Assembly (NCBI GenBank): GCA_024614665.1
Contig: GCA_024614665.1_4861.1
Source: a phage
DNA length: 64,000 nucleotides
Direction: 5' to 3' (one strand)
In this document: positions 48,837-64,000 of the stretch, piece after piece
Layout of the letters: every line of letters begins with the position of its first letter
Numbering within the stretch: the stretch's first letter is position 1
Made by a program: the position numbers and the translations under genes
The notes under the pieces: model-generated
What the model saw: the letters and a program-made list of their open reading frames with translations, nothing else
The model's database searches: none
Told to the model about the DNA's origin: nothing

Positions 48837-48851
48837 TTCAACTCTCCACGA

Positions 48852-48864
48852 GATTATATATCAC
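48852..48864 (-). promoter_or_regulatory. AT-rich promoter-like element
   Basis: Minus-strand TTAATAGTTAATAGTGTGATATATAATCTCGTGGAGAG directly upstream of ATG 48836; contains a tandem TTAATAG repeat. Confidence 0.4.
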
Positions 48865-48881
48865 ACTATTAACTATTAACG

Positions 48882-48918
48882 TAAAAAAGGAAATCCCTCT
48901 TACCCGAAGGTAAGAGGG
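48882..48918 (-). terminator. intrinsic terminator
   Basis: Hairpin CCCTCTTAC CTTCGG GTAAGAGGG followed on the minus strand by ATTTCCTTTTTTAC. Confidence 0.6.
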
Positions 48919-48924
48919 GAATTT

Positions 48925-49404
48925 TCATTGCACAAGGCAACTACTTCTGTGCCGTTCGTAGGCACGATTAAAAGACACTCTGTCTTCGCGATAGCCGCGA
49001 ATGAGAGACTTAATCTGTCGTGACAAATCACGACTAATGTCTTGAGGGCTACGAGAACCAGGGTCGAGATATATCCCAGTGGGTATATCATGAAGAGTGG
49101 GGCGAATAAACTCTTCACAAAGCGGTGCGGCCATCGGGGTGCGCCACCCCTTAGCTTCTGCGTAATTGTTCAACGACTTAGCGTACAGATAAACGTAATA
49201 AGCATAAGCGTTCACATCCGCAACAAACATTTTCCCTGCCAGCTTTTTCGCCTCAGGACTGTTCCCACCGACATAAACTGGTGGGTGTTCTAAAGGACGA
49301 AAAGGCCAATCTCCGGTTGAGGAGTAATCTGGGTCTACGTGACGGATGACCCCAGGGCATCCTGTCAACAATAGCACCAATATCGCCGCCAAAAATAACT
49401 TCAT
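48925..49404 (-). CDS. lipoprotein (o-spanin-like candidate)
   Basis: 159 aa; N-terminal signal with lipobox LLTGC. Confidence 0.5.
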   Translation of the reverse strand: MKLFLAAILVLLLTGCPGVIRHVDPDYSSTGDWPFRPLEHPPVYVGGNSPEAKKLAGKMFVADVNAYAYYVYLYAKSLNNYAEAKGWRTPMAAPLCEEFIRPTLHDIPTGIYLDPGSRSPQDISRDLSRQIKSLIRGYREDRVSFNRAYERHRSSCLVQ

Positions 49405-49413
49405 GTATGCTCC

Positions 49414-49923
49414 TCATGGATTATTAAGCGTACTGATAATCTCCTGTCGGAAATCATTTGCCTCCTGCGACCCTACCGGGCGAGAAGCGGCCTGGTGTTT
49501 CTTGGCAGGTGGGCTAGACGGATTTAACGGTGCCGGCGGTGTTACCGGCTTGGGTTCTACAGGCGGAACCGCGGCCCCAGTGCCTGTTCCTGTTGGAGAT
49601 TTGGTACCATCATATGGCGGTCGAGAACCCAGGCACGTGAAGAGACGATCGTACAACTTATTGTTCTCCACTTCGCCGTGATCGGACTTCTCTTTTAGCT
49701 CCTTATAGGATATCTCCAGATACTGAGTACGCGATTGAACGCTAACCAGTGTGTGGTATTGAACAATATAGGCATATGAGACAAATGCAGAGAACGCGAT
49801 CAGTGCCACTATCACTAGTGTCACTATTTTCCCGGCTCGTGTTACTTTCTCCCCCTCGCCCGGTTTAAATGCTTCCCACAGTATCTGTAAGAATGGAAGC
49901 AGTTTGAAAACTGATGCTATCAT
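49414..49923 (-). CDS. membrane protein with N-terminal TM helix and Pro-rich C-terminus (i-spanin-like candidate)
   Basis: About 169 aa from ATG 49923; TM segment IVTLVIVALIAFSAFVSYAYIV, then a charged, apparently helical stretch and a Pro/Thr-rich tail; immediately upstream of the lipoprotein gene. Confidence 0.45.
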   Translation of the reverse strand: MIASVFKLLPFLQILWEAFKPGEGEKVTRAGKIVTLVIVALIAFSAFVSYAYIVQYHTLVSVQSRTQYLEISYKELKEKSDHGEVENNKLYDRLFTCLGSRPPYDGTKSPTGTGTGAAVPPVEPKPVTPPAPLNPSSPPAKKHQAASRPVGSQEANDFRQEIISTLNNP

Positions 49924-49947
49924 GCTCACCTCGGAGAGTTTTTAATT

Positions 49948-51973: not shown

Positions 51974-52013
51974 CTACCTACTCCCTTGGGAGTAGGTAGG
52001 CTTTTATTTTTTA
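51974..52013. terminator. bidirectional intrinsic terminator
   Basis: Hairpin CTACCTACTCCC TT GGGAGTAGGTAG then GCTTTTATTTTTT; A-run upstream for the opposite strand. Confidence 0.7.
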
Positions 52014-53211: not shown

Positions 53212-53478
53212 CTAGTTACGGTCGGAATTAAAGACGTGCCAGGTACTACGCCAGCGAAAGAATCGGGTCATGAAACCACGCACGTGGTAGCCTGAGAACA
53301 ACATCCAGATCGTGAGAAAAAGCTGCGCCCATGGAGTGGTGAGTTCCATCAAATGTGCGACTATCGCACCAACTATCAACATTACCGTGGAGAATAACAA
53401 ACCATACATCATCGGAATGTTGTGGCTATAGTGTTTCTCCATCCAGTAGAGAAAATTTATTAAACGTTTCACGAACAC
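53212..53478 (-). CDS. small membrane protein (holin-like candidate)
   Basis: About 75-88 aa; two hydrophobic helices and a basic C-terminus; two genes downstream of the endolysin. Start codon uncertain. Confidence 0.4.
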   Translation of the reverse strand: MFVKRLINFLYWMEKHYSHNIPMMYGLLFSTVMLIVGAIVAHLMELTTPWAQLFLTIWMLFSGYHVRGFMTRFFRWRSTWHVFNSDRN

Positions 53479-53490
53479 ACATCCAAGAAT

Positions 53491-53524
53491 TAAATAAAAG
53501 GTGGTCAGACCCGAAGGTCTGACC
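53491..53524 (-). terminator. putative intrinsic terminator
   Basis: Hairpin GGTCAGACC TTCGG GTCTGACC with a weak T-tract (ACCTTTTATTT) on the minus strand. Confidence 0.4.
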
Positions 53525-53529
53525 GTTAA

Positions 53530-54123
53530 TTACGCATCGGCCTCAAAGAACGGCTGGTTTGGTACCACTGCGTATTCGAGCACGAACAGATGTTCTGGGG
53601 CATCTTCTGCTCGCCACAGTTTGTGACACGTTGCCAGTTTTTCCAGGATGGTCAGCCAGCTGAGTTGGCAAAACGCACGATCGCCGAAGAACAGTTTCTG
53701 CAGTGCAATTGACACATCCATATACGCCTGTTTGAAGTCGAGCCCTTTATCGTAACCTGCCGACTGTCGCCAGGTCAGCACGAAACCTGCTTCGGTTTCG
53801 TTAATTGCTGGACGTAAACCACAAATCCACATCAGTGCCAGATTAACGTTCCAGTCGAATTCGATACCTTCGTCTTCGTCATCACCAAACGCCGCGTTTA
53901 ACGCGTCGTAGAAACCGTGGTTCTCTGCGAACCATTCGCCGTACTCAACGTAGACCGGTGCTTCGACAGCCTCCCCATCGACTTCACCGATAGGGCGCTC
54001 TACATAGTTCGGGTTGGTTTGAACGTGTTCCGCACCCGCGCGAATCAGTTCGTAGACATCTTTGGCGGTGATTTGTGCGGCTGTTTTAAGACCTGGATAC
54101 CAGGGGCGTGTTACGAGTGTCAA
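53530..54123 (-). CDS. hypothetical protein
   Basis: 197-aa ORF overlapping the endolysin stop by 4 nt. Confidence 0.5.
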   Translation of the reverse strand: MTLVTRPWYPGLKTAAQITAKDVYELIRAGAEHVQTNPNYVERPIGEVDGEAVEAPVYVEYGEWFAENHGFYDALNAAFGDDEDEGIEFDWNVNLALMWICGLRPAINETEAGFVLTWRQSAGYDKGLDFKQAYMDVSIALQKLFFGDRAFCQLSWLTILEKLATCHKLWRAEDAPEHLFVLEYAVVPNQPFFEADA

Positions 54124-54842
54124 AGCAGTGCTCCTTTCATGATGGTGTTATTTGCCAGTAATGTACCGGCCGCAGGTGATATTTTGGTGTACAGCGTATC
54201 CCAGATTTTCTGAAGTTCAGCGACGCGTTGGTCGTGGTCTTCCTTCGCAAAAGCAAGCTGACGTGTTTCAGCTTTCGGTGGCGTCATTTTCGCACCGTAG
54301 AATGCTGCGTCTTTTCGGTAACTGGCCATCCAGCGTTTCCCGACCGGTGATTTCTTTTTAATCATCGCAACAGCAGCACTCTCACCGAAGCGGTAGCCTA
54401 ATGCGATTTCGGCTGTGCTCGGCTTGCGTTTGAGTTGTTTCGTCAGATGATCCTCGATGTGTTTCATGTAAACAGCAGCAAGCTGTACAGCATATTTCGG
54501 TTTATTAAGGTCTGCGTTCTTTGGGATGTTAAGTTGTTTCCCATACAGACGTATCATGGAGCGTTTAGTGCCTGTCGTCATTTGGACAACACTACTAGCA
54601 CTGCTCGATTTATTCTTACCCACGTTTTTATTAAAACGGGATTCACGGTAAATAGTGGTCGCAAGCATCCCGGCGTGTACACCTTGCTTTTGAGATGCGG
54701 AGACGATGAGAGGTTTAATCTCATTGAACTGGTCCTGGATAAGGACAAATTCTTTTTGATGTTTGTTACTGGTGGACTGGTAAGAAGCGTTGCTGTTGAA
54801 TGTGGTCACTGCTACCAGAAGAAATAAAATGGTGCGAAACAT
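54120..54842 (-). CDS. lytic transglycosylase-type endolysin with N-terminal signal peptide or SAR domain
   Basis: Start placed at ATG 54842 (MFRTILFLLVAVTTFNSNA, signal-like) with GGAG SD; SLT-type catalytic region YRESRFN ... SSASSVVQM. Confidence 0.55.
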   Translation of the reverse strand: MFRTILFLLVAVTTFNSNASYQSTSNKHQKEFVLIQDQFNEIKPLIVSASQKQGVHAGMLATTIYRESRFNKNVGKNKSSSASSVVQMTTGTKRSMIRLYGKQLNIPKNADLNKPKYAVQLAAVYMKHIEDHLTKQLKRKPSTAEIALGYRFGESAAVAMIKKKSPVGKRWMASYRKDAAFYGAKMTPPKAETRQLAFAKEDHDQRVAELQKIWDTLYTKISPAAGTLLANNTIMKGALL

Positions 54843-57988: not shown

Positions 57989-60488
57989 ATTTGATTATTA
58001 CCCCTTCGTTATAAACCGGTGGAAGCGTTACACCTTCTGGCTCGACGACACAGTAGGTGGCTTCGTTAAGTTTAGAATGAACTTCCGCTTCATGCGAAAC
58101 GACCAGTAATTGAGAAAACTCTCCCGACAACGCCAACGATTTAATGAAGTTAACTAATCGGTTTTTGTGTTCTTCATCCATGCCTTCAGATGGTTCATCC
58201 AATAACAAAGGATAGTTTTGTAAACCAAGCGCTTTATACGCCGTTAAACGAAACATCATGTTAAAGATAATACGCTGTGCTTTTGAACCTTTCTTCACAT
58301 CCGGTACCAGTTCTACATGGTCTTTTAATCGCACAGGGAACGTGTAGTCCAGATCCCCGTCGGTTAGATCGCACGGAATAACCTGCATCGGATATGCCCA
58401 CACCATTTCGATATACCGATTCATTAAATCCATGATGCGGGTAATCGCAGCGTAGAAGTAACGTCTCAGTAAACCTTTTTCAGGAGAAACCGCATTAATA
58501 ATCAGTCTGGCATGGTGGTGTTCTTTGAGCAACTCAGCTTGCTCTTTTTCCAGTTCCGCTAAACGTGCAATAGCCCCTTCCATTTGACGAAACCGTTCAC
58601 GAGCTGAAGTATACGCATCGAGCTTCGCTTCGCGGCGGTTTAACAACTCACGAACTACGACGTTGTTAACGGAGATGTTCATTTCCGATACCAGATGTTC
58701 GTAGCCCTTTTGGAAACGTTCGATTGCTTCTTTGGTTTGTTGCAGTTGGGTGGTTTCGCGTTCCAGCTCATTGGCTTGTCTGCGGTATTCTATCAGTCGA
58801 CGGTTAGCCCCGTCTAGTTGTGAACGGATATGTTCAATTTTCTGGCTCAGAGCACCATCAACATTACCTACTGCGGCAACAGCCTCTTGCCATTCCCGTT
58901 CCGCTGTTGCAAGCTTCGCTGATTGACGCAGATACATCATGGCCGAATCTAACTCTTCGGTAAAGGCACGTGCAATGGCACCATATCGATCCCGCGCCGT
59001 GGTGAAGATATCCAGCTCCTGTAGTTTACGGAAAAACAAACCGACAACGGGATGATTGGAATACGACATGACAATTTCGCGAATCGTACGTAGGCTACGG
59101 ACGTCCTCTTCAATCTCTTTGCGGTCACGCAAAAGACTATCCATTTCGTCTTTCAGCTGTTTTTTCCAACCTTCATTATCGTTGATGGCCTTTTCAATTT
59201 CAGGTAACGACTTACGAATCCCAGGACGGAAACGGTGGTTACACTGTGGACAATCAACTTCTGCAGTTTCTAAGAAGTGTTGACGGTCGTGGTATAAACC
59301 GTGTAGCACATTCTCACAACGTTGCAACTTTTCAGATAGACCCGCAGAGGTTAAATCCATACCCTGTAAACGCTTCTCTAACGCTCCTAGGCGCTCTGTT
59401 GTCTTTAACTGGTCCAGATGCATGGACAACGGTAAATTCCAGTTACAGGCGTCGTTTAACGCGTTCTGAATGCTATCCACGTCGATGCGGGTACCTTCAA
59501 ACAGAGCCGGGAACATCCAGTTCTGTTGGAACGTTGCCAGTTCCTGTTTTAAGCTGTCGATTGTTTGTTTTAGACCGGTATGGTTACGCATCAGATACGC
59601 TTGACGCGACTCCTCATCCAGTAGCTGTGACAACTCTTTATTGTACATGTTGCATTCAGTTTCAGCGGAGGCAGCTTGCTCACGCCAGGCAACCACACGA
59701 CTTTGAAACTCGTTAATCAGTTCGTCAGAAGGCAGAACGCCATAACGTTCCATAATGAGTTTTACAGCCGGTTGCAACGAAGCAATGCGTTTCCGGATAC
59801 TGTCAACCGAAACAGCGTTATCTAAACCGGGCCTTGCTTCAATTGTGCGGTTTAATTCTTGAAGCTCAGCATCGAGTTCTTTCAAACGAACTTCTAAACG
59901 TGCACGATCTTCTTCATCGTCAACGACGCGCATTTTTGCTTCGCCGATTTTTCGTCCGGTGTGTTCGATGGCCCCGCTTAAACTGGAAGCGAGTTTACGC
60001 AAACGTCGATAGCAGCCAACAACGTACGTCAGATCAGATTCTGACATTAACGTAAACCATTTACGACGAACTTCGGTAGTGGCGTCAGTTAATAAGGTCT
60101 CACCATTAATTAACTCTTTGATTTCTTTGGTGATTCCGGTTAATTGCTCCACCATGGAGTTGTAAACTTTGGCGTTTACCGAGTCCACAATGGGGACGCC
60201 TTTGGTGATATTGAAAATACTACAAGACAAAGAAGACCCACGTCGCAGGACTTCAAACTTAAGACGGTCGTCCCCGACTAACGCGTAGTTAGTGTAAGAA
60301 CCACCTTCACGGAATTCAGATTTTGCTGGAGCTAAGGGGAGAAAAACAGATAGGAGGCTTGTTTTACCGCAACCATTCCCACCAAGGATAATGGTAACGG
60401 TTGATTTAAGGGTGAAATCAAACGTTTCGATTTCATGTAACCCCATGCCGGTAAATCCTTTCAAAATGATACGTTCGACCTTGAGCAT
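57978..60488 (-). CDS. Rad50/SbcC-like SMC-family ATPase
   Basis: 836 aa; N-terminal Walker A GGNGCGKTSLL, long central coiled-coil-like region with CPQC zinc-hook-like motif, C-terminal Walker B LLLDEPSEGMD and H-loop-like VVSHE. Confidence 0.6.
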   Translation of the reverse strand: MLKVERIILKGFTGMGLHEIETFDFTLKSTVTIILGGNGCGKTSLLSVFLPLAPAKSEFREGGSYTNYALVGDDRLKFEVLRRGSSLSCSIFNITKGVPIVDSVNAKVYNSMVEQLTGITKEIKELINGETLLTDATTEVRRKWFTLMSESDLTYVVGCYRRLRKLASSLSGAIEHTGRKIGEAKMRVVDDEEDRARLEVRLKELDAELQELNRTIEARPGLDNAVSVDSIRKRIASLQPAVKLIMERYGVLPSDELINEFQSRVVAWREQAASAETECNMYNKELSQLLDEESRQAYLMRNHTGLKQTIDSLKQELATFQQNWMFPALFEGTRIDVDSIQNALNDACNWNLPLSMHLDQLKTTERLGALEKRLQGMDLTSAGLSEKLQRCENVLHGLYHDRQHFLETAEVDCPQCNHRFRPGIRKSLPEIEKAINDNEGWKKQLKDEMDSLLRDRKEIEEDVRSLRTIREIVMSYSNHPVVGLFFRKLQELDIFTTARDRYGAIARAFTEELDSAMMYLRQSAKLATAEREWQEAVAAVGNVDGALSQKIEHIRSQLDGANRRLIEYRRQANELERETTQLQQTKEAIERFQKGYEHLVSEMNISVNNVVVRELLNRREAKLDAYTSARERFRQMEGAIARLAELEKEQAELLKEHHHARLIINAVSPEKGLLRRYFYAAITRIMDLMNRYIEMVWAYPMQVIPCDLTDGDLDYTFPVRLKDHVELVPDVKKGSKAQRIIFNMMFRLTAYKALGLQNYPLLLDEPSEGMDEEHKNRLVNFIKSLALSGEFSQLLVVSHEAEVHSKLNEATYCVVEPEGVTLPPVYNEGVIIKYAS

Positions 60489-62292: not shown

Positions 62293-62703
62293 TTAAAAGT
62301 CGAGTTTATTGATGCCTACGTTTTTCTTAATCGTAGGGTCATACATGATAACCGTCAGGGCATTATCACCTGGGTCGCGAGTAAACTCAGCAACGGCTTC
62401 ACCACTGCAGGCCTGGTTATCATTATAGTTCATGGTTTCGGCTTGCCCGGTTGCCATGTTAATAACCCCGTATTCCGGGTCGCCACATGCGACGCCGCCC
62501 ATCGTTTTCACTAACAGGTAACGGTTGTTATCGGACATCGCAACGATCTGGCAGCTACCGCCTTGTACGTCAGAGTTCTGGCACCAGAACTGGCCGCCGT
62601 ATTCGTGATCGTTAACAACTTTTGGTAACTCGATACTTCCAGCACGAGCGAAGAAGCTAATGGCCAGAGTAGCAAGTAAAACTGGTAATAAAAAATGTTT
62701 CAT
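62293..62703 (-). CDS. secreted protein (signal peptide)
   Basis: 136 aa; N-terminal MKHFLLPVLLATLAISFFARA signal; GAGGTG SD. Confidence 0.5.
   Translation of the reverse strand: MKHFLLPVLLATLAISFFARAGSIELPKVVNDHEYGGQFWCQNSDVQGGSCQIVAMSDNNRYLLVKTMGGVACGDPEYGVINMATGQAETMNYNDNQACSGEAVAEFTRDPGDNALTVIMYDPTIKKNVGINKLDF
62296..62308 (-). promoter_or_regulatory. variant of the TTAATCGACTAT upstream element
   Basis: Minus-strand AAACTCGACTTTT AAGTAAGGAAACAAC ATG. Confidence 0.3.
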
Positions 62704-62725
62704 AATAGCACCTCAATTTTTTGAG

Positions 62726-63217
62726 TTATTCTGAATAGTCGATTGTTTTGATAGTTTCCATACCGTAGTACATAGCGATGGAGGCCAGAGTTTTGGTATC
62801 CGGTCGCTGTACAAAACCGGCCCTGAAATCTTTGCTGCAAATTTTCTCCACTGATAGTTCATCACGATTAGGGATAAGCCATAACGCGTCACCGTTGTGA
62901 CGGTCGACTGCACCCCACCAACCACCTGGGCAATCTTTATCGCCCGGACGGTGTACGATAGCGACACGTCCGTTGAAGGATATGTCAACTACACGACACT
63001 GTTTCTTAAGCAGCTTACGCGCATTGCACCAGAACGGCTTATCATTAAGATTGATGGTGCGGGTATATGCTGGAATGCTGCCGTTAATACTGCCCTGGAA
63101 CCCGCTGAATTCGTCAGCGCGTGCCTTAGAAATCCGTAGCCCAACAACAAGTGCCATCAACAGCACAGTAAAAAGCACCACTTTGGCCAAGTGGCGATTA
63201 ACGTTATTGCATTTCAT
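62726..63217 (-). CDS. secreted protein (signal peptide)
   Basis: Start placed at ATG 63217 (MKCNNVNRHLAKVVLFTVLLMALVVGLRISKARA) with GGAG SD. Confidence 0.5.
   Translation of the reverse strand: MKCNNVNRHLAKVVLFTVLLMALVVGLRISKARADEFSGFQGSINGSIPAYTRTINLNDKPFWCNARKLLKKQCRVVDISFNGRVAIVHRPGDKDCPGGWWGAVDRHNGDALWLIPNRDELSVEKICSKDFRAGFVQRPDTKTLASIAMYYGMETIKTIDYSE
62733..62745 (-). promoter_or_regulatory. AATCGACTATTC element
   Basis: Minus-strand CAATCGACTATTCAGAATAA overlapping the last codons of the upstream gene, about 35 nt before ATG 62703. Confidence 0.4.
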
Positions 63218-63605
63218 TTTTAATATCTCCACGATTAAGGGTGATGCGACCGACGAGCACATCGTTGTGATAAAAACTCACAGCAACCAGATCTGGCAAT
63301 TCCAACGGCGATACACTGACCGAGGTGACTTTTGGTTGATTGCACGATATGTCGATTAATCGCTGATACATTTTCAATTTCTTATCAGCGATAACCAGCC
63401 CTGTGCAGTTCTTACCGTCCGTCAGTCTGTAGATTTGTAACTGTTCGACCTCACGCATCAGTTCCGGTTTTTCATTCGGTGCAATGGCATAATCCGAATC
63501 AGCTGATGTGTATTCAGTCACGTCTGGCTTATCGAAAGCATAAGTTGCTGCAATACCACATGCGGCCAGAACTACTACTGCTTGTAAGAACTTCTTGATA
63601 GTCAT
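63204..63605 (-). CDS. lipoprotein
   Basis: 133 aa; signal peptide with lipobox VLAACG. Confidence 0.5.
   Translation of the reverse strand: MTIKKFLQAVVVLAACGIAATYAFDKPDVTEYTSADSDYAIAPNEKPELMREVEQLQIYRLTDGKNCTGLVIADKKLKMYQRLIDISCNQPKVTSVSVSPLELPDLVAVSFYHNDVLVGRITLNRGDIKNEMQ
63227..63240 (-). promoter_or_regulatory. variant of the TTAATCGACTAT upstream element
   Basis: Minus-strand CCTTAATCGTGGAGATATTAAAA ATG. Confidence 0.3.
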
Positions 63606-63614
63606 GTTTTGCTC

Positions 63615-63627
63615 TATAGTCGATTGG
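63615..63627 (-). promoter_or_regulatory. AATCGACTATAG element
   Basis: Minus-strand order: terminator, AACCAATCGACTATAGAGCAAAAC, ATG. Confidence 0.4.
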
Positions 63628-63630
63628 TTT

Positions 63631-63659
63631 AAAAAAGAATAGGCTACCCGAGGGTAGCC
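63631..63659 (-). terminator. intrinsic terminator
   Basis: Hairpin GGCTACCC TC GGGTAGCC followed on the minus strand by TATTCTTTTTT. Confidence 0.6.
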
Positions 63660-63689
63660 AGTTGAGTTAATCTCTTAACTCTCACCTAG

Positions 63690-63706
63690 GTAATATATAT
63701 CTGAGA
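63690..63706 (-). promoter_or_regulatory. AT-rich promoter-like element (TATATTAC type)
   Basis: Minus-strand CTCAGATATATATTACCTAGGTGAG, near-identical to the element at 5632-5647. Confidence 0.5.
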
Positions 63707-63710
63707 TATT

Positions 63711-63971
63711 TTACAATGTGAAGGTTGTGTTAAGAATACGAAAACCCAATGCTCGCTTAGCGATTTGCATATTTGCAGGCGTGAAGTCCACCAGTTTGAT
63801 TTGAACGATCGATAAATCGTAAAGCTTGTGAAGCACTTCGATTTTGTGCCGCCAATCTGTTTTTTGGTGCAGCTCTATCGTCGTTGGTATCTCGCCTAGT
63901 CTCGGCAACTGTGCCCCAAGTAAACGATGATGGACTTTACCGTTTATAGTTGGGGTACCTTCCGTAACCAT
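63711..63971 (-). CDS. hypothetical protein
   Basis: 86-aa ORF close to the window edge; upstream region not fully visible. Confidence 0.4.
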   Translation of the reverse strand: MVTEGTPTINGKVHHRLLGAQLPRLGEIPTTIELHQKTDWRHKIEVLHKLYDLSIVQIKLVDFTPANMQIAKRALGFRILNTTFTL

Positions 63972-64000
63972 CAGTCGTGCATCGATGTAGTTATTTCGCT

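Follow-up and report, generated by a model that had tools for sequence, protein, structure and literature searches.

A candidate spanin-type pair of membrane protein and lipoprotein in phages related to the Salmonella jumbo phage SPN3US

In a 64,000-nucleotide stretch of phage DNA (hereafter the window; contig GCA_024614665.1_4861.1 of NCBI GenBank assembly GCA_024614665.1), we analyzed two adjacent genes whose products, gp204 and gp205, are a predicted inner-membrane protein and a predicted outer-membrane lipoprotein. The architecture of the two proteins gives good support to an envelope-spanning, spanin-type two-component complex, in which we infer the interaction itself, and we rate at about even the chance that this complex is the lysis spanin of SPN3US, the Salmonella jumbo phage (Seoulvirus) to which the 1.2 kb spanning the two genes is 99.6% identical, in reverse orientation. 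SPN3US serves as a genetic model of giant phages and is a candidate for biocontrol; its lysis system lacks annotation, the pair is the sole candidate for the outer-membrane step, and the two genes (SPN3US_0204 and SPN3US_0205 in GenBank) are each named 'hypothetical protein'. If the pair does act in lysis, it would supply the missing part of a lysis system centred on a secreted endolysin, and would add a type of spanin with the flexible proline-rich part on the inner-membrane subunit and a lipoprotein that is a folded hairpin. The idea of a spanin was already flagged in 2018 for the homologues in phage CR5, and the pair is still unannotated in all SPN3US-like records.

Architecture of the gp204/gp205 pair

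The gene order is that of an i-spanin followed by an o-spanin, as the first-pass annotation of the window had proposed: a gene for a type II inner-membrane protein precedes a gene for an outer-membrane lipoprotein, and periplasmic cysteines are conserved in both products (C97 in gp204; C96 and C156 in gp205). Positions 48925-49929 are filled exactly by two minus-strand open reading frames (ORFs), 49414..49929 (171 amino acids [aa], counted from a GTG) and 48925..49404 (159 aa). The true start of gp204 is almost certainly the ATG at 49923 (169 aa) and not the GTG at 49929, because a GAGGTG Shine-Dalgarno sequence lies 4 nt upstream of the ATG, the GTG falls inside this sequence, and most homologues (in a 5.8-billion-protein collection) are 169 aa long; in CR5_183, the CR5 homologue of gp204, GAGGT occupies the equivalent position. 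The start given in RefSeq and GenBank, at record position 180017, is placed 13 codons too late, and the most conserved part of the protein is thereby lost.

We found in gp204 all three elements that had been described at first pass, an N-terminal transmembrane helix, a charged helical region and a proline-rich tail: a transmembrane domain (TMD) at residues 33-54 (mean hydropathy 2.48), a helix at residues 55-98 with 31% charged residues, and a linker with 27% proline over residues 100-150. The full order is N-terminal helix, TMD, periplasmic helix, proline-rich linker and C-terminal helix (Table 1). An AlphaFold2 model built on a 15-sequence alignment has helices at residues 3-18, 29-98, 139-146 and 152-167 and disorder at residues 99-138, such that about half of the periplasmic part is disordered proline-rich linker. 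The invariant positions cluster at three sites, namely the first 30 residues (K7, L9, P10, F11, Q13, L15, E17, A18 and F19 in alignment A4), Cys97, the single periplasmic cysteine, with the adjoining RPPY[DE]G (C97, P103 and Y104 invariant in family alignments A1 and A4), and the C-terminal helix (P149, V150, G151, F158, R159, E161 and L166). C-terminal helices like that of gp204 are present in homologues with a lipoprotein partner. The type II topology is not certain, given the extra hydrophobic helix at residues 3-18 ahead of the TMD, for which the Kyte-Doolittle 19-residue mean of 1.5 is borderline for a transmembrane segment.

The lipobox lipoprotein (LLTGC) that the same annotation had placed immediately downstream is also there; its gene follows that of gp204 after 9 nt, with strand and frame unchanged. 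The N-terminus of gp205 is MKLFLAAILVLLLTGC..., and its signal reads MKLFLAAILVLLLTG followed by Cys16, which is invariant (alignments A2 and A3). A lipobox is recognisable in 63 of the 70 members of the gp205 family, the exceptions being mostly truncated gene calls, and the +2 residue is never Asp; gp205 is accordingly classed here as a predicted outer-membrane lipoprotein without an inner-membrane retention signal. All 70 members have a cysteine within their last six residues (C156 in the window protein), and both C96 and C156 are invariant, C96 in a 27-sequence alignment. In the AlphaFold2 model of gp205 (mean predicted local distance difference test score [pLDDT] 85.7), residues 50-84 and 120-155 form a helical hairpin, and a beta-bridge between residues 95 and 157 sets C96 beside C156, which suggests that these two cysteines form an intramolecular disulfide staple. 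Searches of PDB and BFVD found no fold or sequence relative of gp205 outside its family, the only resemblance being to generic hairpins. Neither protein received an informative family from Pfam, PHROGs, NCBIfam or PADLOC; gp204 falls in PHROG 8719 and gp205 in PHROG 8165, both 'unknown', and gp204 has no Pfam family.

These features allow a scheme of how the pair might work. gp204 would be anchored in the inner membrane by its TMD, with the short N-terminal helix lying at, or inserted in, the cytoplasmic face, and would extend into the periplasm a 44-residue helix, probably dimerising (single invariant Cys97), a linker of ~50 residues and the short C-terminal helix. gp205 would be exported and lipidated on Cys16, and Lol would deliver it to the inner leaflet of the outer membrane; its mature form would consist of a tether of ~30 residues and the hairpin stapled by the C96-C156 disulfide. 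The C-terminal helix of gp204 would bind this hairpin and, as a length estimate, the 44-residue helix, the 50-residue linker, the 30-residue tether and the hairpin could together cover about 25 nm. Once the secreted transglycosylase gp198 had destroyed the murein mesh, the complexes would be free to cluster and collapse, and would thereby bring the inner and outer membranes together, disrupting or fusing them. In this scheme, the pattern of disulfides, the timing and the fusion of the membranes are, like the interaction, what we infer.

Conservation, lysis genes and relation to known spanins

Our tblastn searches with gp204 and with gp205 matched one and the same set of 73 phage records (33 Salmonella, 34 Erwinia, 2 Escherichia, 2 Cronobacter, 1 Proteus and 1 Enterobacteria), in which the two genes stand side by side; identity falls to 30-40%, and in every one of these records the pair is annotated as hypothetical or left unannotated. 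A profile search of 1.84 billion representative proteins yielded 48 clusters of the lipoprotein family at 50% identity. The gene order is constant in five genera (Seoulvirus, Erskinevirus, Machinavirus, Wellingtonvirus and Derbicusvirus), in which a macro-domain protein is followed by an SLT transglycosylase, two to four small genes, two opposite-strand virion genes, the membrane protein, the lipoprotein, an exonuclease and RNase H. The order of transmembrane (TM) protein and lipoprotein is kept in all SPN3US-like relatives, and there the lipoprotein always has an upstream TM partner. Moreover, the module of SLT transglycosylase and pair recurs in two distant metagenomic relatives, in one of which only two inverted virion genes separate the two parts. 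The conservation and co-occurrence of the pair are far beyond chance.

Directly after gp205, an intrinsic-terminator-like hairpin parts the pair from the exonuclease and RNase H genes. All 11 genomes examined (the window, eight SPN3US-like phages and the two metagenomic relatives) have an equivalent hairpin after the lipoprotein gene, with stems that differ in sequence. Because this hairpin is present in the window and in all 10 relatives, gp204 and gp205 look like a transcription unit of their own in SPN3US-like phages, apart from the exonuclease and RNase H genes.

Several records of the pair are imperfect. In Salmonella phages SPFM5, 7, 8, 9, 10, 12, 14, 15 and 20, both genes match as 3-6 broken pieces with 75-95% identity and low coverage, which looks like frameshift-type sequencing errors and not real gene decay. 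The annotation of Proteus phage 7 lacks a coding sequence for gp205, and that of SEGD1 lacks both genes.

The statement of the first-pass annotation that the pair sits away from the endolysin was too strong, since the gene of the secreted SLT transglycosylase gp198 is on the same strand, only 4.2 kb upstream, and this arrangement is conserved. gp198 is the orthologue of part of the phiKZ endolysin gp144: it is 31% identical to the catalytic domain of phiKZ gp144 over 117 residues (E 5e-12), and its N-terminal hydrophobic segment, MFRTILFLLVAVTTFNSNA, which resembles a signal peptide or a signal-arrest-release (SAR) sequence, replaces the peptidoglycan-binding domain of phiKZ gp144; the same replacement is seen in CR5_178 and in two metagenomic relatives. 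Based on these sequences, gp198 is the probable endolysin partner of the pair. The presence of the signal- or SAR-like segment in gp198, CR5_178 and the metagenomic relatives also suggests that SPN3US-like phages export their endolysin via Sec or SAR, and not through a large-hole holin. Between gp198 and the pair lie gp199, gp200 and gp201, and then two opposite-strand virion genes; gp200, a small membrane protein to which family searches gave no assignment, might be a holin or pinholin.

We scanned all six frames of the rebuilt 240-kb SPN3US genome for lipoboxes, with a relaxed version of the scan that recovers phiKZ gp141.1 (LNGC) and gp156 as positive controls. Only three plausible lipoprotein genes were found: gp205, ACQ60_gp107 (163 aa) and ACQ60_gp086 (133 aa). 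The latter two were rejected as an o-spanin or a unimolecular spanin (u-spanin), as they have neither a same-strand upstream TM partner nor a C-terminal TMD, and the genome scan found no second pair of TM protein and lipoprotein in SPN3US. Furthermore, tblastn gave no match in SPN3US for phiKZ gp141, 141.1, 142 and 143, RSF1 ORF095-097, PCH45 gp54, the Ea35-70 i-spanin or the 201phi2-1 spanin pair. Conversely, BLAST of gp204, gp205 and gp199-201 against phiKZ gp141, 141.1, 142 and 143 found nothing, the match of the SLT protein to gp144 being the only one.

The closest precedent is in phage CR5, for which SpaninDB lists CR5_183 (171 aa) and CR5_184 (148 aa, with MLTG before the lipobox Cys) as a 'separated' i-spanin/o-spanin pair (Kongari et al. 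2018, PMC6139136). CR5_183 is 41% identical to gp204 over residues 1-108 (63% of the length; E 2e-11), and CR5_184 is 33% identical to gp205 over residues 76-157 (52%, by tblastn; E 2e-7) and 26-30% identical over the full alignment. Under the SpaninDB cut-off of 40% identity over 40% of length, the i-component falls above and the o-component below, and CR5_183 and CR5_184 were singletons in 2018. The homology is clear from the family profile, which matches with E about 1e-50. The CR5 pair also shares with that of SPN3US the protein sizes, the synteny with the transglycosylase, virion genes, exonuclease and RNase H, the lipobox type and the conserved cysteines; its assignment as a spanin is bioinformatic only and was made hesitantly.

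The pair also shares the design of lambda Rz/Rz1, in which a type II protein of the inner membrane joins an outer-membrane lipoprotein in a periplasm-spanning complex and periplasmic cysteines are present, as summarised in the SpaninDB paper (PMC6139136); there is no sequence similarity. The Rz1 gene is embedded in Rz; Rz1 itself is a small peptide rich in proline, and most of Rz is coiled coil (background in PMC6139136). The roles are reversed in SPN3US, where gp204 carries the proline-rich linker and gp205 is the folded helical hairpin. We note three departures from Rz/Rz1: the linker on the membrane subunit, a folded and probably disulfide-stapled lipoprotein, and a conserved cytoplasmic N-terminal helix.

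In phage T4, the 'separated' spanins PseT.3/PseT.2 are, like gp204/gp205, the products of two distinct neighbouring genes that form no cluster with those of the holin or endolysin, but they belong to a different family of smaller proteins (about 100-120 aa) and have no homology to gp204/gp205. Since lysis genes are not clustered in T4-like genomes (PMC6139136), distance from the endolysin is no argument against a spanin.

A further comparison is with the spanins of phiKZ, gp141/gp141.1 (168 and 120 aa), which are encoded beside the holin gp142 and the endolysin gp144 and complement lambda Rzam Rz1am (Manohar et al. 2026, PMC12894885). Like gp204/gp205, they come from the same phage family, are of similarly unusual size and have an N-terminal TMD after about 15 residues, and the gp141.1 lipoprotein has a helical C-terminal part and two extra cysteines, as in gp205. 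In contrast to gp204/gp205, the phiKZ genes overlap and adjoin the holin and endolysin genes, the proline-rich segment is on the lipoprotein gp141.1 and not on the membrane protein, and there is no detectable sequence similarity.

Homologous pairs in other chimalliviruses and alternative functions

The proposal that gp204 and gp205 are a spanin pair, as made at first pass, thus holds for their architecture, to which the 9-nt gap with coupled Shine-Dalgarno sites, the strict co-occurrence in 73 records and the shared terminator after the pair also speak. Its extension to the lysis of SPN3US draws on several lines of evidence: the terminator of the pair's own; the status of the pair as the only candidate in SPN3US, in a neighbourhood conserved with a secreted endolysin orthologue; the SpaninDB precedent of CR5; and the equally large size of the proven phiKZ spanins. 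What weakens the proposal are homologous pairs in other phages, together with some features of the two proteins themselves.

The first of these is a second membrane-protein/lipoprotein pair in phiKZ, gp156.1/gp156, which is syntenic with gp204/gp205, being flanked by gp157 (orthologue of SPN3US gp203, E 3e-57) and the RNase H gp155 (orthologue of gp207, E 2e-37). Read from Met5, phiKZ gp156 begins MSRKFFLILLPLISG followed by Cys, and hhalign of the gp205-family profile against the C-terminal half of gp156 gave 92% probability (E 7e-7) with both cysteines matched. As annotated, gp156 starts at a TTG, which hides its lipoprotein signal. For the membrane proteins, hhalign of the gp204 profile against gp156.1 was not significant, but gp156.1 has the N-terminal motif IKALLFVWPFLK (compare FKLLPFLQ of gp204) and matches RSF1 ORF058 with E 2e-5. 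ORF058 is in turn the best hit of the gp204 profile (E 0.008), and the hidden Markov model ranks the syntenic TM proteins among its top hits (E 0.008-0.2).

We examined the RNase H locus in SPN3US-like phages, the metagenomic relatives, RSF1, phiKZ, 201phi2-1, PCH45 and Agricanvirus. At this locus, 201phi2-1 encodes the TM protein gp242 and the lipoprotein gp241, and RSF1 encodes the TM protein ORF058 (164 aa, with a cysteine and a proline-rich linker) and an unannotated lipoprotein of 105 aa (record 59960-60277). In PCH45 (gp68, 174 aa) and Deimos-Minion (gp151, 135 aa with an extended start), a TM protein is present with no adjacent lipoprotein. An LPFL-type N-terminal motif is common to phiKZ gp156.1, 201phi2-1 gp242, RSF1 ORF058, PCH45 gp68 and Deimos-Minion gp151. 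The TM proteins of phiKZ and 201phi2-1 differ from gp204 in that they are short (95-96 aa) and lack the proline-rich linker, and their lipoproteins lack helix 1.

phiKZ, 201phi2-1 and RSF1 each have a separate canonical spanin pair in addition to the pair at the RNase H locus. PCH45 and Agricanvirus have retained the TM protein alone, with a canonical spanin pair elsewhere. SpaninDB lists 201phi2-1 ORF226 with an overlapping ORF, EL gp111 and Ea35-70 Ea357_015 as spanins (PMC6139136). In RSF1, ORF097 (a TMD protein), ORF096 (a lipoprotein with LSG before its Cys, overlapping by 4 nt) and ORF095 (a large N-terminal soluble domain with a C-terminal TMD) lie at record 92008-93141, near the endolysin ORF091; this trio mirrors the layout of phiKZ gp141/141.1/142, and from their sequences the three genes appear to be an unannotated phiKZ-type lysis cassette. 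PCH45 gp54, which is essential by transposon sequencing (Tn-seq), contains an embedded, unannotated lipobox ORF. As a side observation, RSF1 ORF055 (SLT) is annotated without its signal peptide.

The pair is the only candidate spanin system in SPN3US, but its homologues in phiKZ, 201phi2-1 and RSF1 are not alone in their genomes, and the coexistence with canonical spanins in these three phages weakens the inference that the gp204/gp205 family is 'the' spanin. We considered that the RNase H-proximal pair might be an ancestral spanin that degenerated after a canonical pair was gained. If so, phages with a full-length pair should lack other spanins; the whole RSF1 genome has both, which refutes this idea. 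Persistence of the module beside spanins in phiKZ, 201phi2-1 and RSF1 implies either two spanin systems or an unrecognised envelope-bridging function.

The strongest alternative is that gp204/gp205 is a conserved envelope complex of chimalliviruses, the nucleus-forming jumbo phages, whose primary function is not lysis; candidates would include tethering or stabilisation of the envelope, or trans-envelope signalling in the middle phase of infection. SPN3US-type phages would then disrupt the outer membrane in another way or merely reuse the pair. We regard this as a possibility to be taken seriously, if an unlikely one. It would account for the presence, in every chimallivirus lineage examined, of a TM protein with an N-terminal K/R-L..LPFL motif between a gp157-like virion gene and RNase H, for the separate canonical spanin pairs in five of those lineages, and for the two lineages (PCH45 and Agricanvirus) that have no adjacent lipoprotein. 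The pair persists family-wide beside a core replication-phase gene (RNase H), and in phiKZ gp156.1, gp156, gp155 and gp154 are reported to be co-transcribed; gp155 is a ChmA-dependent middle gene with high expression at 20 min, and the phage nucleus needs it to mature. Within the proteins, conservation in gp204 is highest at its cytoplasmic N-terminus, which has no obvious use in a spanin, the heptad pattern of its periplasmic helix is weak (the count reaches 0.54; SpaninDB predicts a coiled coil at 66-99 of the CR5 homologue), and gp205 is large and folded, unlike Rz1. Moreover, about 13% of phages have no identifiable spanin (PMC6139136).

On the other side, Pfam, PHROGs, NCBIfam, PADLOC, PDB and BFVD name no alternative function, and a primary function outside lysis would leave SPN3US-type phages without an outer-membrane disruptor. 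In SPN3US-like genomes a strong terminator severs the pair from the RNase H operon and the neighbourhood with the secreted SLT protein is conserved, and the case for homologous TM proteins in the different clades depends on weak scores (E 0.008 to 9) plus synteny. Our literature search found no experimental data on any member of the gp204/gp205 family, nothing on SPN3US lysis genes or on the function of phiKZ gp156 beyond the remark on co-transcription, no mention of gp156 in the phiKZ lysis paper, and no description of the homology of gp204/gp205 to a second phiKZ-like pair. In its broader form, this alternative makes gp204/gp205 a second periplasm-bridging module of the whole Chimalliviridae, distinct from the canonical spanins and either unrelated to lysis or regulating it, which we likewise hold to be possible but doubtful; the cytoplasmic N-terminal helix of gp204 would then couple an intracellular event to the envelope.

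We also considered, following the superinfection-exclusion alternative raised at first pass, that gp205, held by gp204, might serve superinfection exclusion or enzyme control, by blocking the tail transglycosylase of an incoming phage or by restraining the phage's own SLT protein until lysis. T4 Spackle inhibits an incoming tail transglycosylase, and lipoprotein lysozyme inhibitors offer another comparison. The modelled gp205, a small disulfide-stapled helical periplasmic domain, would be of a suitable kind, the SPN3US endolysin orthologue is secreted and may need an inhibitor, a gp144-like transglycosylase domain is found in a SPN3US tail protein, and middle-phase expression, as of the phiKZ homologues, would suit exclusion. 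However, gp205 resembles no known inhibitor or exclusion protein in sequence or fold, an inhibitor would not need a long TM partner that spans the periplasm, and phiKZ keeps gp156 even though its endolysin is cytoplasmic until holin triggering. These considerations make the proposal improbable. Exclusion by receptor masking in particular is unlikely, because a conserved core is shared by phages of five host genera (Salmonella, Erwinia, Cronobacter, Ralstonia and Pseudomonas). The outer-membrane lipoproteins of the T5 Llp and Cor type are small, receptor-specific and without a membrane-protein partner; gp205, with its upstream TM partner and five host genera, is set apart from them by these descriptions, not by sequence comparison.

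Finally, a lysis-timing module, in which gp204 would be a class III-type holin like T4 gpt and gp205 a periplasmic antiholin or lysis-inhibition sensor, is very improbable: gp204 does resemble T4 gpt in overall topology (a short N-terminus in the cytoplasm, a single TMD and a periplasmic domain with cysteine), SPN3US has no assigned holin and the conserved cytoplasmic N-terminus could bind a regulator, as for T4 and phiKZ gp142/gp143, but phiKZ has the proven holin gp142 and still keeps gp156.1, gp200 beside the SLT gene is a better holin candidate, a proline-rich linker and an outer-membrane-anchored partner suit a bridge better than a hole-former, and there is no similarity to any holin family.

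The locus and its flanks

Table 1. Features of the gp204/gp205 locus and of nearby candidate lysis genes (positions in the window)
Feature	Coordinates	Strand	Description
gp204 (SPN3US_0204; RefSeq ACQ60_gp062)	49414..49923	-	169-aa predicted inner-membrane protein, i-spanin-like component; ORF, start from Shine-Dalgarno sequence and homologue length
gp205 (SPN3US_0205; ACQ60_gp061)	48925..49404	-	159-aa predicted outer-membrane lipoprotein, o-spanin-like component; ORF
Shine-Dalgarno GAGGTG of gp204	49927..49932	-	Read from sequence; alternative GTG start 49929 falls within it
gp204 residues 3-18, N-terminal hydrophobic/amphipathic helix	49870..49917	-	K-L-L-P-F-L motif; most conserved part of gp204
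gp204 residues 33-54, transmembrane domain	49762..49827	-	Kyte-Doolittle 19-residue mean 2.48; within continuous AlphaFold2 helix 29-98
gp204 residues 55-98, charged periplasmic helix	49630..49761	-	AlphaFold2 pLDDT ~80; ends at invariant Cys97, then R-P-P-Y-[DE]-G
gp204 residues 99-150, Pro/Thr/Gly-rich extended linker	49474..49629	-	pLDDT <50; sequence and length variable in alignment A1
gp204 residues 152-167, conserved C-terminal amphipathic helix	49423..49470	-	PVG...FRQEIxxxLN; AlphaFold2 helix; candidate lipoprotein contact
Shine-Dalgarno GAGGAG of gp205	49410..49415	-	Read from sequence; overlaps gp204 stop codon
gp205 residues 12-16, lipobox L-L-T-G-C	49357..49371	-	Cys16 is the predicted lipidated mature N-terminus; +2 is Pro, not Asp
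Intrinsic-terminator-like hairpin	48885..48918	-	10-bp G+C-rich stem, UUCG loop, T-run; directly after gp205 stop
gp198 (SPN3US_0198)	54120..54842	-	Secreted or SAR-type SLT transglycosylase; Pfam SLT E 2e-6; 4.2 kb upstream of pair, same strand
gp200	53212..53478	-	Small membrane protein, 86-88 aa; TM segment 21-39, Kyte-Doolittle mean 2.18, and a second weaker hydrophobic stretch

Beyond the T-run of the gp205 terminator, ahead of the exonuclease gene, positions 48837-48884 of the minus strand hold a conserved stretch that reads TTTTTTACGTTAATAG...TGTGATATATAAT in Salmonella phages and ...CTAATGTATACCC in Erwinia phages; it might serve the exonuclease/RNase H unit as a phage promoter. On the other flank, the divergent genes gp203 (+) and gp204 (-) have start codons only 24 bp apart (49924-49947), and thus the promoters of both must sit inside neighbouring coding sequence. 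This distance is 17-24 bp in SPN3US-like relatives, and the phiKZ equivalent is 178 bp.

Two further hairpins lie between the SLT gene and the pair. A terminator-like hairpin with a UUCG loop at 53503-53524, just upstream of gp200 and after gp199, splits the SLT gene and gp199 from gp200 and gp201, and a perfect hairpin with an 11-bp stem at 51974-51999, between the convergent genes gp201 (-) and gp202 (+), has a terminator score on both strands.

Other muralytic enzymes and exported proteins are encoded elsewhere in SPN3US. A second muralytic enzyme, soluble, with GH108 and PG_binding_3 domains and annotated as endolysin, lies outside the window (positions 135425-136042 and 137623-138114 of the SPN3US record cover this enzyme and a lipoprotein). 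The lone 163-aa lipoprotein (LLAG before its Cys) is 1.6 kb from the GH108 enzyme on the other strand, without a TM partner or a C-terminal TMD. The third gp144-like transglycosylase domain is within a giant tail protein (record 205881-206363). At about 62408-64000 of the window, on the minus strand (record 165783-167492), ACQ60_gp086 to gp083 encode four small exported proteins, mostly rich in cysteine: a lipobox-like signal (MTIKKFLQTVVVLAAC) marks one of them, another carries an N-terminal anchor and the remaining two bear cleavable signal peptides, the first of the run being cut by the end of the window.

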